The notes beneath the pieces are model-generated. The model had not been told where the DNA came from and ran no database searches. It saw only the letters and a list, made by a program, of their open reading frames with translations. Below, piece after piece: positions 14,984 to 55,219 of a DNA stretch of 64,000 nucleotides. Source of the DNA: an uncultured candidate division WWE3 bacterium (GTDB taxonomy: Bacteria; Patescibacteriota; WWE3; UBA101185; UBA10185); contig CALKWN010000065.1 in assembly GCA_938004185.1 (NCBI GenBank), positions 315,111 to 379,110 on the forward strand. The letters run 5' to 3'. Made by a program: the position numbers and the translations under genes. The first letter of the stretch is position 1, and each line of letters opens with the position of its first letter.

Positions 14984-15385
14984 TTAACACATATTATTTT
15001 TTGCTGACTTTTGTAAATAATTTATGTAATCTTCCTTTTTCTCATGCTCCATCGAATTTGCCTCGGGGTGCTTCAAGTGAGTAATTTCGTGCTCTATAGT
15101 ACCCACCAAACCGCCTGGTGCCCTATGAATATCTATGGGGCATATAGAAATACAGCTATCCTCGGGGTGATACATACCCCAAGGGCCGAAAGATCTTATG
15201 TAACATTCAACGTCTCCTTTAATTTCTGGAAACCCTTCTGCTACTATTTCTAAAACCTTTTTTTTGTTCTCCTCAGTGGGTTCGAAATAAACAATGTTAC
15301 GCTGTGCACAGAAATCTTTTAACCCTGGGAGAAAATTACTCATAAGGTTACTATTAACTTTTTCTGAGTATATTATTTTTACCAT
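14984..15385 (-). CDS. Small HExxH zinc-metallopeptidase-like protein (133 aa)
   Basis: HEITHLKH motif preceded by a conserved-looking stretch (WGMYHPEDSC...). No SD at the annotated start, so the start is uncertain. Confidence 0.5.
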   Translation of the reverse strand: MVKIIYSEKVNSNLMSNFLPGLKDFCAQRNIVYFEPTEENKKKVLEIVAEGFPEIKGDVECYIRSFGPWGMYHPEDSCISICPIDIHRAPGGLVGTIEHEITHLKHPEANSMEHEKKEDYINYLQKSAKNNMC

Positions 15386-15417
15386 TCTTTAATTTTACTA
15401 TGTACAGAAAAACTAAA

Positions 15418-15462
15418 GAATGGGAGGGAAAGAAGTTTTTTTAAACTTTTTCCCTCCGATGT
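15418..15462 (-). other. Long A/U-rich hairpin with GGAGGG/CCCUCC ends in the 5' region of the HExxH gene (terminator or attenuator candidate)
   Basis: Minus-strand RNA: GGAGGGAAAAAGUUU-AAAAAAA-CUUCUUUCCCUCC followed by a U-rich stretch. It lies 175 nt downstream of the EamA stop and 33 nt upstream of the HExxH ATG. Confidence 0.3.
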
Positions 15463-15634
15463 ACTACTTGATGTCCGATCGAGTCTATTAATCTCGGCAA
15501 TTGCAGTAGCAGTTACAAATGAATTTAATTTAAAGATCTGGGTGTTGAGTTAATGGTATCCGTGTTATTTTTCATTTCTTGGCAGATAGTAATGTAAAAC
15601 AAACTTCTCCAAGCTACCCCATGCCTGGAATTAG

Positions 15635-50713: not shown

Positions 50714-52711
50714 CTAGTTAAGCATCTTTTTCATCTCTCTTACTCTATCGCGTAAAACGGCAGCTCTTTCAAAATTCAGCATTTCAGCTTCGTATAACAT
50801 TTCCTTTTCAATATTTTTAATTTCCCTGCTAAGTTCTTTGGGAGGCAACTGTCTGTAATCAACTTCTTTTCCTAAAGATTTCCCGCTTTTCTTACTCTGA
50901 AGTGTTTCTTCAAGTTCTTGGTCAATGAGTTTTTCGCGTATAGGTTTGGATATTTTTTGAGGTTTAACATTATTTTTTTCGTTGTATTCCAATTGTATTT
51001 GACGCCTTCTCTCAACCTCATGTATGGCTCTTTTCATGCTGCCGGTCATATTATCCGCATACATCAATACTTCACCGGATATGTGACGCGCCGCTCTCCC
51101 CATTGTCTGAATAAGCGAAGTTTCCGACCTTAAAAATCCTTCTTTATCTGCGTCCAGAATAGCAACCAAAGACACTTCGGGTAAATCTAAACCCTCTCTT
51201 AACAAGTTGATCCCCACCAAAACGTCGTATTTACCGTTACGCAGGTTATCCAAAATGTCGGTTCTCTCCAAAGTATGTACATCTGAATGCAGGTAGGTGA
51301 CTTTTATCCCTTTTTCAAGCAAATATTCCGACATTTCCTCTGCCATTCTTTTCGTCAATGTGGTTACTAAAACTCTTTCTTTTCTCTCGATCCTATCTTT
51401 AACTTTTTCAAGTAAATCCTCGATCTGATTTTTTGTCGGCAGAACGGTCACTTTCGGATCCACAATTCCGGTTGGACGTATAAGTATTTCTGCGGAAGTG
51501 CCGTCCGATCTATCCAGCTCCCATTGGTCGGGGGTGGCGCTTACATAAATTGTCTGATTAACCCTTTCTAAAAATTCGTCGAAATTAAGAGGTCTGTTAT
51601 CCATAGCGGAAGGGAGTCTGAAACCGTAATCCACTAAGACCTGCTTTCTTGATCTGTCTCCGTTGTACATTCCCCTGATTTGAGGAACAGTTATGTGAGA
51701 TTCGTCTATGATTAATAAATAATCCTTGGGAAAATATTCCAGTAAGGCGTGGGGGGCATCTCCCGGGTTTCTTCCGTCAAAATATCTCGAATAGTTTTCT
51801 ATTCCTTTGCAGTAGCCTAACTCTTTTATCATCTCAAGATCATAATTGGTTCTTTGCTCTAATCTGTAAGCTTCTAGTTGTTTTCCGGTTTTTTTCAACT
51901 CTTTAAGACGTATTTCGAGGTCGGTTTCTATTTGCTTCAAAGCAACCTGACGGGTTTCTTCGGGAGCTACGTAGTGTTTCGCAGGATAAACTACGGCTAG
52001 ATCCGAGTAAGGCTTGGTTATGTAATTTCCGGTAAGGGGTTCAAAAAAATTCATATCAACTAAAACATCATCCGATATTTCCAGTCTCAACCCTTCGTCC
52101 TCGTAAGCCAGATACACATCAATAACATCTCCGGTTACTCTGAAGGTTCCTCTATGAAAATCATATTCTGAACGCTCGTAGTAAATCTGAGATAATCTTT
52201 TTAAAAGGTCGGATTTTCGAATTTTCATACCCGTCCTAAGCTCCAGGGCAACTTTTGAATATTCTGCCGGACTTCCTAGGTTGTATATGCAGGAAACCGA
52301 TGATACAACTATGACGTCCTTTCTAGTCATTAAAGATGTTGTGGCTGAAAGTCTTAACTTATCGATCTTTTCGTTAATCGCGGAATCTTTTTCAATGTAA
52401 GTATCGGTTGAGGGTATATAACTTTCGGGCTGGTAATAATCGTAATAGCTCACAAAATACTCAACCGCATTTTCGGGAAAAAAGTCCCTGAATTCCTGAT
52501 ACAGCTGTGCCGCCAACGTTTTATTGTGAGAAATTACTAAAGTAGGCTTTTGTACTTTTTCAATAACGTTCGCAACAGCAAATGTTTTTCCGCTTCCTGT
52601 CACGCCCAACAGAACCTGATCTTTTTTTCCAGATTCCAGTCCTAAAGTTAATTTATTGATAGCGTCAGGCTGATCACCCGTCGGTTTAAATGGAGAAACA
52701 AGCTTAAACAT
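50714..52711 (-). CDS. uvrB: Excinuclease ABC subunit B
   Basis: FKLVSPFKPTGDQP N-terminus, helicase motifs, C-terminal UVR domain. The ORF track start (GTG at 52729) is 6 codons upstream of the ATG chosen here. Confidence 0.92.
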   Translation of the reverse strand: MFKLVSPFKPTGDQPDAINKLTLGLESGKKDQVLLGVTGSGKTFAVANVIEKVQKPTLVISHNKTLAAQLYQEFRDFFPENAVEYFVSYYDYYQPESYIPSTDTYIEKDSAINEKIDKLRLSATTSLMTRKDVIVVSSVSCIYNLGSPAEYSKVALELRTGMKIRKSDLLKRLSQIYYERSEYDFHRGTFRVTGDVIDVYLAYEDEGLRLEISDDVLVDMNFFEPLTGNYITKPYSDLAVVYPAKHYVAPEETRQVALKQIETDLEIRLKELKKTGKQLEAYRLEQRTNYDLEMIKELGYCKGIENYSRYFDGRNPGDAPHALLEYFPKDYLLIIDESHITVPQIRGMYNGDRSRKQVLVDYGFRLPSAMDNRPLNFDEFLERVNQTIYVSATPDQWELDRSDGTSAEILIRPTGIVDPKVTVLPTKNQIEDLLEKVKDRIERKERVLVTTLTKRMAEEMSEYLLEKGIKVTYLHSDVHTLERTDILDNLRNGKYDVLVGINLLREGLDLPEVSLVAILDADKEGFLRSETSLIQTMGRAARHISGEVLMYADNMTGSMKRAIHEVERRRQIQLEYNEKNNVKPQKISKPIREKLIDQELEETLQSKKSGKSLGKEVDYRQLPPKELSREIKNIEKEMLYEAEMLNFERAAVLRDRVREMKKMLN

Positions 52712-52755
52712 CAAAAATGATTTTAACACAATTTTGGGTTTTGTTTGGATAATAG

Positions 52756-52783
52756 TTGCATTAATTTTTTAATTGAATATAAT
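52756..52783 (+). promoter_or_regulatory. Sigma70-like promoter (TTGCAT -16- TATAAT) reading into the uvrB-lexA intergenic RNA
   Basis: Near-consensus hexamers. Divergent from uvrB. Confidence 0.4.
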
Positions 52784-52788
52784 TTGTG

Positions 52789-53087
52789 CTGATCCCGAAA
52801 GGGGAGACGGAGATTTCGCCGAAAGGCGACATAGCGGGGAAAAAATAAACCCCAAGTTGCATGAGACGGGAATGTTCTTGACGCAGGATATGTTTAACAA
52901 AGCGCATTAAAAATTTGTGCTTCCAACTATCCTCTGAGCAGCGCGTCAGGATTTCCTTCATGCTTTTGAAACTAAATACATCTGCCGGGTTAAACCCTCC
53001 TTTTTATTGTGAAACAGATCGGCGACCCCACCCAACCCGGCGACAAGAATGCCGTGATTCCTAAATAGTCTCACGGCATTTTTCCTT
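52789..53087 (+). ncRNA. Candidate ~300-nt structured non-coding RNA (unclassified) between uvrB and lexA
   Basis: Segment is GC-richer than the surrounding intergenic DNA. Consecutive GNRA hairpins (UCCC-GAAA-GGGA, UCGCC-GAAA-GGCGA), GGGG-N10-CCCC, an 8-bp GCCGGGUU/AACCCGGC pairing, and a 3' intrinsic terminator. No convincing ORF with an RBS. Confidence 0.4.
53049..53087 (+). terminator. Intrinsic terminator (AUGCCGUGA...UCACGGCAU + U5) just upstream of the lexA promoter
   Basis: 9-bp perfect stem, 13-nt loop, UUUUUCCUU tail. Confidence 0.6.
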
Positions 53088-53088
53088 A

Positions 53089-53136
53089 TTGACATCTTCG
53101 TATAATATTCGGTAGTATGAACATGGTTAAAAACCA
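53089..53136 (+). promoter_or_regulatory. lexA promoter (TTGACA -18- TAGTAT) followed by a perfect 13-bp palindrome TGGTTAAAAACCA (candidate operator)
   Basis: Hexamers at 53089-53094 and 53113-53118. Palindrome at 53124-53136 near the predicted +1. Confidence 0.35.
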
Positions 53137-53175
53137 AAGAAAAACCGTAAATAATTATAAGGAGATTTCTTTATT

Positions 53176-53811
53176 ATGAGCCCCGTAACCCTATACAAAA
53201 GGCAAAAACAAATTTTAGATTTTATTTCACAATATATTCAAGTAAACGGGCATTCTCCAACTCTTCAGGAAATTGCGGACTCCATGAATCTTTCCTCGCT
53301 TGCTACGGTACACGAACATATCCAGGCTCTCGAAAAGAAAGGTTTAATAAAGAAATATGAAGGTTCTGTAAGAGGCATAGAAATTCTGGATAAATCCTTT
53401 AACTCATCTTTAATGGCTGTCGAACTTCCTCTCGTAGGTTACATCGCTGCCGGTGAGCCTATAGAAGCTATAGAAAATTCTCTTGCTACAGTAACTGTCA
53501 GCGCAGACATAGTTTCAAAAACCAAAAGATGTTTTGTTTTACAGGTAAAAGGTGACTCGATGATAGATATGGGAATTTTCGACGGCGACCACGTTGTAAT
53601 ACAACAGCAAAATACAGCGAGAGATGGTCAGATAGTAGTCGCCCTAATAGATAACGAATTTGCGACATTAAAATCAATATTCCATGAGAAAAACGGTAAG
53701 ATAAGACTCCAACCGGCAAACACTAAAATGGATCCTATATTTGTAGATCCCGCAAGCCTTAGTATCCAGGGAGTTGTCACCGGAGTAATTAGAAGATTCC
53801 AAAACAACTAA
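53176..53811 (+). CDS. lexA: LexA repressor
   Basis: N-terminal wHTH, AAG cleavage site (VGYIAAGEP), S24 peptidase Ser/Lys (GDSM..., K in LKS). GGAG RBS. Confidence 0.9.
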   Translation: MSPVTLYKRQKQILDFISQYIQVNGHSPTLQEIADSMNLSSLATVHEHIQALEKKGLIKKYEGSVRGIEILDKSFNSSLMAVELPLVGYIAAGEPIEAIENSLATVTVSADIVSKTKRCFVLQVKGDSMIDMGIFDGDHVVIQQQNTARDGQIVVALIDNEFATLKSIFHEKNGKIRLQPANTKMDPIFVDPASLSIQGVVTGVIRRFQNN

Positions 53812-53832
53812 ATATCGGTGTCCATTCAAAAA

Positions 53833-54486
53833 TTATTCTGTCTTTGGCTTTGCTGAATTTCTTCTGCTCTTAATAAATTCAAAAATCATCGGCAAAACAG
53901 ATATAAAGATTATCGTTATAACTACCAGAGAAAAGTTGTCTTTCACAAAAGGTATATTTCCGAAAAAATATCCTGCGAATATAAACAAAGACACCCAAAC
54001 AAAACCCCCGACAATATTGTAGGTCATGAAATATTTGTATTTCATACCCCCGATACCCGCGACAAAAGGAGCAAACGTTCTGACTATGGGAACAAATCGT
54101 GCCAAAAATATTGTTTTACCCCCGTGTTTATTATAAAAAGCCTGAGTTTTCTCGATATGTTCTTTTTTTATAGGGACTCTTGGATTGCTAATAAGTTTCT
54201 GCCCAAAAAAATGCCCTATCCAGTAATTTGCCGTGTCTCCGAGAAAAGCGGCAAACCACAAAAGAAAAAACAGCAAAACTACATTAAAAGCACCCAGCGA
54301 AGCAAAAGCTCCGGCTGCAAACAAAAGAGAATCTCCCGGCAAAAAAGGGGTAAAAACAAAACCGGTTTCCATAAATACAATAAAAAAAAGTATAAGATAA
54401 GACGCCGTACCGTATTGGCTTATAATCTCACCCAAATGAGTATCTATGTGAAGTATAAAAGAAACGATTCCCATGATTAAATCCAT
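53833..54486 (-). CDS. DedA/VTT-family membrane protein
   Basis: Conserved DedA motif (F.PG.S..FAAGAFAS.., GK..FLARFVP..R). Confidence 0.8.
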   Translation of the reverse strand: MDLIMGIVSFILHIDTHLGEIISQYGTASYLILFFIVFMETGFVFTPFLPGDSLLFAAGAFASLGAFNVVLLFFLLWFAAFLGDTANYWIGHFFGQKLISNPRVPIKKEHIEKTQAFYNKHGGKTIFLARFVPIVRTFAPFVAGIGGMKYKYFMTYNIVGGFVWVSLFIFAGYFFGNIPFVKDNFSLVVITIIFISVLPMIFEFIKSRRNSAKPKTE

Positions 54487-54514
54487 TCCAAGATGATAGC
54501 ATTTATGATAGGAT

Positions 54515-55219
54515 TTGAAAATGATAGACGGTACTCTGCTCGACCAGTACTACGCCAAATACGGCAAAGAAAACGTTGAAAAAGCCTTAGAATATTTAAG
54601 CTATAAAACCGCCGGAACTCTCCCCAAAAATGAAATTGAAGGAAAGCCAATTTTATATATTTTCAGACATGGACAAACTGAAGATAACGCGAATTTTGTA
54701 TTCAGCGGATGGCGTGATTCGCCGATTACCGAAAAAGGTAAAAAACAAGCATTGGAATTAGCAGAAAAAATAAAGGACAAAGATATCGGCATGTTAATCT
54801 CGTCACCTCAAATAAGAGCTGTGGAGACAATGAGAATCGCGTGCTCTTTAAATGAAAAGGCCTCAAAACTAAAAATCGAAACCGAAGAAAGAATAAAAGA
54901 AAGATCATACGGAATATTGCAAGGGAAAAGTAAACTTGAAATCCAGCTCGAAGACCCCGAACTATTGTTAAAAATAAGAAGATCTTTTGATTACCGACCT
55001 GAAAACGGTGAAAGTATAGAGATGGTTTGTAAACGCGTTGCCGAATTTTGCGAAGAAATAGTGCCCCTTATGAAAAAACATAAAATTAATGTTGCTGTTT
55101 CGTGTCACGGAAATTCCATCAGAGGTTTCAGAAGATTTTTTGAAAATTTATCAGACGAAGAAACTGCAACTGTAGAAACACCCCTCGCAAAAGATTACGC
55201 AGCCTACTCTATTGATTGA
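54515..55219 (+). CDS. Histidine phosphatase superfamily (phosphoglycerate-mutase-like) protein
   Basis: RHGQTEDN catalytic motif. C-terminal H in CHGNSIRG. Confidence 0.75.
   Translation: MKMIDGTLLDQYYAKYGKENVEKALEYLSYKTAGTLPKNEIEGKPILYIFRHGQTEDNANFVFSGWRDSPITEKGKKQALELAEKIKDKDIGMLISSPQIRAVETMRIACSLNEKASKLKIETEERIKERSYGILQGKSKLEIQLEDPELLLKIRRSFDYRPENGESIEMVCKRVAEFCEEIVPLMKKHKINVAVSCHGNSIRGFRRFFENLSDEETATVETPLAKDYAAYSID

Follow-up and report, generated by a model that had tools for sequence, protein, structure and literature searches.

The uvrB-lexA spacer of an uncultured WWE3 bacterium was analysed within a stretch of 64,000 nucleotides (nt) of contig CALKWN010000065.1, hereafter the window. 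Its LexA is identical to, or shares 90% identity with, proteins named from WWE3 genomes. Between uvrB, on the minus strand, and the divergently oriented lexA, on the plus strand (53176-53811), lies a candidate element that is predicted, from its promoter-like site and its terminator, to be an independent plus-strand transcription unit of ~295 nt (~52790 to 53083). Judged by alignment, the element is the positional orthologue of a transcription unit that encodes a small peptide in a sister clade, with an array of hairpins that either took the place of the coding part or was derived from it. The explanation that we prefer, tentatively and with a probability of roughly 0.45, is that the element yields a lineage-specific functional non-coding RNA from a slot that alternates between coding and non-coding content.

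A structured RNA of ~300 nt with its own promoter and terminator had been proposed at this place in an earlier note on the window, and the coordinates given there for promoter, hairpins, helix and terminator were exact in the sequence. That note described neither the long 105-nt hairpin (52859-52963) nor the peptide-gene counterpart in the sister species.

The element and the sister peptide gene

Comparisons were carried out with 184 collected lexA loci, representing 84 distinct uvrB-lexA spacers. In the sister clade (L003, L097, L101, L103, L104, L147, L102, L183 and L184; LexA ~90% identical), the spacer measures 430-460 nt, a size similar to that in the window, and contains a plus-strand open reading frame (ORF) of 52-55 codons following a good ribosome-binding site (RBS; e.g. 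MDETRWARYEAEARRAAVMVFWGEVFKILGTLLTSWVTYVAALIIWGLTKIF). The L003 copy is located at 2656-2814. The ratio of nonsynonymous to synonymous substitution rates (dN/dS) was 0.13-0.37 in all pairs, with dS reaching saturation; by this measure, the ORF is a real gene under purifying selection. The encoded peptide of 52-55 amino acids (aa), charged in its N-terminal half and hydrophobic in the C-terminal one, is predicted to be a tail-anchored membrane peptide. It belongs to no Pfam family. Among 5.8 billion proteins, its family forms 10 clusters at 90% identity, all of them WWE3 proteins labelled 'hypothetical', and an exhaustive hidden Markov model search of 1.84 billion proteins returned one representative. 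Adjoining lexA, the product is a candidate SOS-linked membrane peptide.

Using nhmmer and a DNA profile of the sister spacers, the window was matched in two pieces, 52714-52806 and 52973-53170. The first comprises the motif on the uvrB side and the promoter and extends up to the RBS-like GAAAGGGGAG, of which GGGGAG is aligned to the sister RBS. The second begins just past the sister stop codon and continues through the GC helix and the terminator to the lexA promoter and leader. The intervening segment (Table 1) is as long as the sister ORF (159-168 nt). Common to both forms of the unit are the promoter position, the RBS-like purine tract and a 3' module consisting of helix H5 and the terminator.

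No similarity between the core and the sister ORF was detected by blastn (word size 7), nhmmer --max, tblastn or hmmsearch with the sister peptide. Following the RBS-like tract, the middle segment has no ATG, GTG or TTG start and is interrupted by stops in every frame; with no homologous peptide either, the window element does not qualify as a member of the peptide-gene family.

Further evidence on coding capacity came from a second haplotype of this species (L092, L093, L095, L096 and L002), in which 14 substitutions and 6 indel positions distinguish the element from that of the window. On reading all six frames, every ORF of at least 40 aa on both strands proved to be frameshifted by the indels, among them a 66-aa ORF on the minus strand and ORFs of 45 and 49 aa on the plus strand. 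The earlier note had listed the minus-strand frame (52761-52961) as the only ORF of the spacer; it exists, but it is frameshifted in the second haplotype.

The 3' module was compared in nine sequences (the window, haplotype 2 and seven sister loci). All 152 of 152 pair cells of the H5 helix and the terminator were standard pairs, and in controls with slid partners only 31-42% of the cells paired. Three pairs are compensatory: two in the helix, changing from U-A/U-A to C-G/G-C, and one in the terminator, changing from U-A to C-G (L003, L101). One further H5 pair varies between G-C, G-U and A-U. The sister H5 loops likewise hold a U-run, GAUC and CCCCACC. Conservation in related genomes, the lack of which would have counted against a structured RNA in the earlier note, was thus found for the promoter position and the 3' module, the core being left without a counterpart. 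A widespread terminator element was considered for the 3' module and rejected, its covariance model matching only this species and the sister clade.

Table 1. Positions and properties of features in the uvrB-lexA spacer (window numbering)
Feature	Position	Strand	Remarks
uvrB extended -10, TGtTAAAAT	52728-52720 (feature 52712-52728)	-	ends 8 nt before ATG at 52711
Operator-like motif TTTGGGTTTTGTTTGG	52733-52748	not assigned	direct repeat TTYG-N7-TTYGG (period 11)
Promoter-like site of the element	TTGCAT 52756-52761, 16-nt spacer, TATAAT 52778-52783	+	inferred start near 52790
H1 hairpin	52793-52805	+	loop GAAAG/GAAA; includes RBS-like GGGGAG
Species-specific middle segment	52807-52972 (166 nt)	+	fills the place of the sister peptide ORF
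H2 hairpin	52816-52829	+	GAAA loop
H3 hairpin	52836-52853	+	GGGG-N10-CCCC, A-rich loop
H4 long irregular hairpin	52859-52963 (105 nt)	+	~36 bp, 9-nt bulge CUGAGCAGC, terminal loop UUAAAAAUU
H5 helix	52984-52991/53034-53041 (span 52984-53041)	+	8-bp GCCGGGUU/AACCCGGC; enclosed loop of 42 nt, rich in pyrimidines and C
Intrinsic terminator	53047-53083	+	9-11-bp stem, 13-nt loop, U5
lexA promoter, TTGACA-18-TAGTAT	53089-53118 (TTGACA 53089-53094)	+	outside the element

The termini of the element were assessed as follows. At the 5' side, the description of the promoter as near-consensus is apt for the perfect TATAAT and the 16-nt spacer and too generous for the -35, TTGCAT, which agrees with TTGACA at only 3 of 6 positions; because of this mismatch, the site was not listed by a consensus scan. 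The -35 reads TTGATT in the second haplotype, and sister loci carry TTGCnT-N17-TATAMT at the promoter position. At the 3' side, a GC-rich stem-loop stands directly before a U-tract on the plus strand, in agreement with the clean intrinsic terminator that had been noted. Its stem, ATGCCGTGA (53049-53057) with TCACGGCAT (53071-53079), has a folding energy of -15.5 kcal/mol (z -5.1). It was missed by a terminator scan only because that scan permits loops of 3-8 nt and the loop here has 13 nt. The terminator ends 5 nt upstream of the lexA -35.

The local structure reported before (GAAA hairpins, GGGG-N10-CCCC and the 8-bp helix) is all present, and the plus strand folds beyond chance. For the whole element, the plus strand scored z -3.5 and the minus strand z -1.3. 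A 190-nt core without the terminator gave z -3.7 on the plus strand, with the minimum free energy (MFE) structure identical to the centroid, and z -1.5 on the minus strand. These values were calibrated on 672 non-overlapping 190-nt windows, taken from the two strands of the 64-kb stretch (mean z -0.22, standard deviation 1.15), among which the plus-strand core ranks fourth. The middle segment is the best-folding part of the element; the sister coding segment folds about as random sequence does (z -0.27). By part, the segment 52790-52856, holding H1-H3, was calculated at -21.2 kcal/mol (z -2.8) and H4 at -37.7 kcal/mol (z -4.4), its MFE structure making up 21% of the ensemble. The loop of H5 contains CCCUCCUUUUU (52995-53005) and CCCCACCC (53026-53033). 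The GC-richer centre seen earlier was borne out as well: the element has 46% GC. Lower values were obtained for coding DNA (39.8%), for intergenic DNA elsewhere (37%), for third codon positions (36.6%) and for the promoter DNA on either side of the element (19-27%).

Similarly, the fold was examined in the second haplotype, where it reaches -95 kcal/mol, against -94 kcal/mol in the window and an average of -85 kcal/mol in random mutants with an equal mutational spectrum. An equally good fold was reached by only 4% of these mutants in one direction and by 8.5% in the opposite one. Three substitutions between the haplotypes fall in the H4 stem, and pairing is kept each time (C-G/U-G to U-G/C-G and U-A to U-G, which is wobble-compatible). 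The H2 loop changes from GAAA to GGAA, still a GNRA loop, and the changes in H3 are confined to indels of the loop and a shift of the stem.

Functional RNA, relic and other explanations

If the element is a functional non-coding RNA, it would be transcribed from its own promoter and would stop at its terminator. Its middle would form a hairpin array made up of two GNRA-capped hairpins, one hairpin with an A-rich loop and the 105-nt hairpin. The 3' module would be the working part, and the 5' hairpins would stabilise the transcript. The likeliest activity would be base-pairing with G-rich ribosome-binding regions, or protein binding, by way of the exposed anti-Shine-Dalgarno-like loop that holds CCCUCCUUUUU and CCCCACCC. 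A link to the SOS response may be drawn from position only, the element lying between the uvrB and lexA promoters with their operator-like motifs.

A functional non-coding RNA is favoured by the good folding of the core, seen on one strand only and ranking high among the windows of the 64 kb, by a GC content far above the intergenic and third-codon levels, by the preserved length, by the fold and pairing retained in the second haplotype, by the disruption of every ORF of at least 40 aa, by the compensatory pairs of the 3' module and by the conserved promoter position with its perfect -10. Several observations weigh against it. The -35 is weak, as described above, and the retained RBS-like tract suits a former mRNA. 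No counterpart of the core was found in the sister species, the 64 kb, the 184 related loci or viral contigs (in IMG/VR, no exact 23-24-mers of it occur), and Rfam holds no matching family. The core is available in two haplotypes only, between which 98% of the cells are paired, with 4 wobble-compatible single changes and 0 double changes; because just these two are known, the core is without compensatory covariation. The comparison with random mutants is only marginal (p ~0.04-0.09). Core divergence between the haplotypes is 4.2-4.6% plus indels and falls inside the range found at third codon positions of genes nearby (0.5-14%, a mosaic due to recombination), so that purifying selection on the core is not demonstrated. 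Finally, a duplex search with the loop against the 53 translation-initiation regions of the window picked only genes with strong Shine-Dalgarno (SD) sequences (best -24.9 kcal/mol); lexA (-12.4) and uvrB (-7.9) were unremarkable as targets (mean -13.3, standard deviation 4.7).

The mosaic was seen across 51979-55011 in comparison with L092, L093 and L095: third-codon differences in lexA were 10-14% (L092, L095) and 0.5% (L093), and neighbouring genes differed between haplotypes by 0-6.6%, a pattern that points to recombination around lexA in the population. No second copy of the element was present in the 64 kb or the 184 loci, and a repeated or mobile element was ruled out on that basis.

A more specific form of the explanation, which we hold to be possible and to which we give less credence, is that one orthologous unit exists in two selected states, the mRNA of an orphan 52-aa membrane peptide and a highly structured non-coding RNA. 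Two polarities can be imagined, the ORF having been lost here or born in the sisters, and no outgroup carries the unit. If the two-state explanation is true, the switch would have been caught in the act, either as de novo birth of a micro-protein from a small RNA (sRNA) or as the emergence of a riboregulator from a peptide gene.

The main rival, lower in our estimate and on balance unlikely, is a relic in decay. The element would then be a pseudogene of a membrane-peptide gene of the sister type, its ORF lost in this lineage, with promoter and terminator persisting because they are recent or because lexA is shielded by the terminator, and with an inert RNA. Its architecture and length equal those of the sister gene, including the RBS-like GGGGAG at the place of the sister RBS; no start codon is left and all frames are stopped; the haplotypes differ by indels, with a divergence near the third-codon level; and the core occurs in one species only. 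A neutral remnant would, however, not be expected among the best-folding 0.6% of windows, and on one strand only. Nor would a GC content of 46% be expected where third codon positions have 36.6%. Saturation of synonymous sites has already been reached inside the sister clade (dS up to >2), so that drift to AT-richness should have followed from prolonged neutrality, yet the element remains at 46% GC. In addition, the exact length is kept in a streamlined genome, although the spacers of most relatives measure 76-140 nt, and the fold is disturbed less by the changes between haplotypes than by random changes. The premise of an ancestral ORF is itself unproven, the peptide family being restricted to the sister clade.

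We regard as improbable a cis-acting insulator, in which transcription and termination upstream of lexA, or read-through into lexA, would matter and not the RNA product. Such a role would suit the position of the terminator, which ends 5 nt before the lexA -35, and a hairpin ahead of the -35 also occurs in L026, L144 and L180. Relatives with spacers of 76-140 nt do without such a unit, however, and the well-folded 5' two-thirds and the covarying GC helix would be left unexplained.

The proposals that the RNA is a long leader attenuating lexA, or that the region is the minus-strand 5' untranslated region (UTR) of uvrB, were both raised in the earlier note and have very little to recommend them beyond the position between both genes. 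As in relatives with short spacers, lexA has its own conserved promoter directly after the terminator, and no antiterminator that could replace the terminator was seen. On the other side, the conserved extended -10 of uvrB leaves only 8 nt before the ATG, and folding of the minus strand is at the level of chance.

Even slighter is the case for a micro-peptide translated from a non-canonical start, AUU at 52813, 6 nt after GGGGAG, with 11 codons (ISPKGDIAGKK) and a TAA at 52846-52848. Both haplotypes keep the frame open although a 3-nt deletion separates them, and they differ by the substitutions K to E and I to V, by a single synonymous change and by one K lost. Against this, initiation at AUU is very rare, H1 sequesters the SD-like tract, H2 and H3 occupy the same stretch, the product has no similarity to the sister peptide and there are just two sequences to judge from. 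The open frame of 11 codons is probably a coincidence.

Searches for known RNAs were carried out with Rfam and ARAGORN. At the gathering threshold, Rfam matched four tRNAs only in the whole 64 kb; at E<=10, the region 52650-53250 gave only chance matches to eukaryotic small nucleolar RNAs and microRNAs (E>=1.4); and ARAGORN detected no transfer-messenger RNA (tmRNA) in 52600-53300. A housekeeping RNA (RNase P RNA, 6S RNA, signal recognition particle (SRP) RNA or tmRNA) was among the options of the earlier note and is favoured only by the ~300-nt size, the GC-rich structure and the absence of such genes from the window; it can be set aside almost entirely, since these searches were negative, conservation would be expected and yet the sisters carry a peptide gene in place of the core, and absence from 64 kb of a genome of ~0.85 Mb is meaningless as an argument.

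The uvrB-lexA slot and its promoters

The spacer measures 446 nt when counted from the GTG chosen by the ORF caller for uvrB (52729) and 464 nt from the ATG at 52711. Alignments of uvrB homologues begin at MFKLVS, that is at this ATG and not at the GTG. Its description as the longest non-coding stretch of the window is roughly right; two longer stretches lack an ORF of at least 90 aa, but they contain a tRNA or an 89-aa ORF.

The divergent order of uvrB and lexA is frequent in WWE3 and Microgenomates, and the spacer between them is hypervariable, ranging from 76 nt to ~2.5 kb. Among the 84 distinct versions, 29 are at most 140 nt long, 13 measure 141-300 nt, 13 measure 301-500 nt and 29 exceed 500 nt. 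Longer spacers hold assorted unrelated ORFs, each of them lineage-specific. In the spacers that were read (e.g. L026, L144 and L180), a hairpin is found immediately before the lexA -35, whatever cargo fills the slot. At L180:637-1163, and also in L181 and L182 (LexA 82% identical), the slot is occupied by a 99-aa ORF and a different 52-aa peptide. The latter has the same charged-then-hydrophobic layout as the sister-clade peptide, and homology between the two was not demonstrable (0.6 bits).

Equivalents of the uvrB extended -10 (TGnTAnnAT) are present in relatives with spacers of 76-100 nt. This arrangement suggests that uvrB transcription starts right beside the start codon and that the mRNA would be leaderless or nearly so. 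The lexA promoter is kept in relatives whose whole spacer is 76-130 nt, and TTGACA-N17/18-TAnnAT occurs in essentially all relatives.

The operator-like motif on the uvrB side overlaps the spacer and -35 region of the uvrB promoter. It stops 8 nt short of the element's own -35 and so lies outside the promoter of the element. A corresponding motif, TTCGTATAATATTCGG, lies at 53097-53112, within the lexA promoter. Across distinct WWE3-like loci, TTYG-N7-TTYGG was found between the lexA -35 and -10 in 64 of 83, and a similar motif, TTTGGGTTTTnTTTGG, was found beside uvrB in 36 of 65. We consider TTYG-N7-TTYGG a candidate LexA operator of the direct-repeat type. The motif occurs 5 times in the window against an expectation of 4.6, and because of this lack of enrichment the assignment draws on cross-species conservation only.

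The lexA 5' leader (53118-53135) has an insertion of 8-9 nt relative to the sister clade, in the region of GAACATGGTT, and the haplotypes differ there too. The insertion sits between TTCGGTA and ACCAAAG half-sites, which form an inverted repeat in many relatives. In other WWE3 lineages, extra spacer DNA was located downstream of the lexA promoter, within the lexA 5' leader (L017:2735-3000, L020:2815-3000, L024:2776-3000 and L028:2255-2420). In L020 this DNA is GC-rich and self-complementary (GGGCTTTTGCG...CGCAAAAGCCC). The extra DNA of these four loci may represent lineage-specific leader structures.

Relation to known systems and other observations

The SOS-induced division inhibitors YneA, SosA, ChiZ and DivS of Gram-positive bacteria are small, fast-diverging proteins with a single transmembrane segment, and are typically encoded near lexA (PMC6851548). 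The sister peptide resembles them in size, in hydrophobicity and in its location by lexA with an operator-like motif, a likeness drawn from sequence alone. Unlike these systems, the window has no ORF; the sister gene is placed in tandem upstream of lexA and not divergently; and the hydrophobic part of the peptide is C-terminal, with no LysM or extracellular domain.

Dual-function sRNAs, the small ORF of which has been lost in some lineages, include SgrS/SgrT, RNAIII/hld and SR1/SR1P. As in these, a peptide mRNA in some species is matched here by a structured non-coding RNA in a close relative, with a common non-coding module; in contrast to them, there is no relationship by sequence or in Rfam. 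Firmicutes also possess sRNAs with C-rich loops, of the RsaE/RoxS type. The element is similar in having exposed C-rich, anti-SD-like loop motifs adjoining an intrinsic terminator. It differs in having no Rfam match and a loop of 42 nt in place of a conserved CCCC hairpin loop, and its predicted targets are merely genes with a strong SD.

Type I toxin-antitoxin loci linked to the SOS response are represented by tisB/istR-1 and dinQ/agrB. Shared with these loci are a gene for a small hydrophobic peptide, present in the sister clade, a candidate SOS context and an associated structured RNA, whereas the window has no peptide and the sister mRNA is not unusually structured. The element was not assigned to this class: it has no peptide ORF, and a consensus scan revealed no promoter-like site on the minus strand in 52786-53090.

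To our knowledge, almost nothing is known of regulatory RNAs in the candidate phyla radiation (CPR)/Patescibacteria. CPR genomes are compact, and a retained, GC-rich and well-folded non-coding unit of 300 nt is therefore conspicuous. If expressed, the element would be a tractable candidate sRNA beside the SOS regulator and, should a trans-acting role be true, among the first such candidates in Patescibacteria. Together with the sister species it would then offer a natural pair for the interconversion of a micro-protein gene and a non-coding RNA. If it is a relic only, it still documents how fast small accessory genes come and go between uvrB and lexA.

Elsewhere in the window, the top folding signal was obtained at 15356-15545, on both strands (z -6.0 and -5.2). 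A long, near-perfect hairpin at ~15422-15458, GGGAGGGAAAGAAGTTT...AAACTTTTTCCCTCC, lies there within an intergenic gap of 249 nt and looks like a bidirectional terminator.

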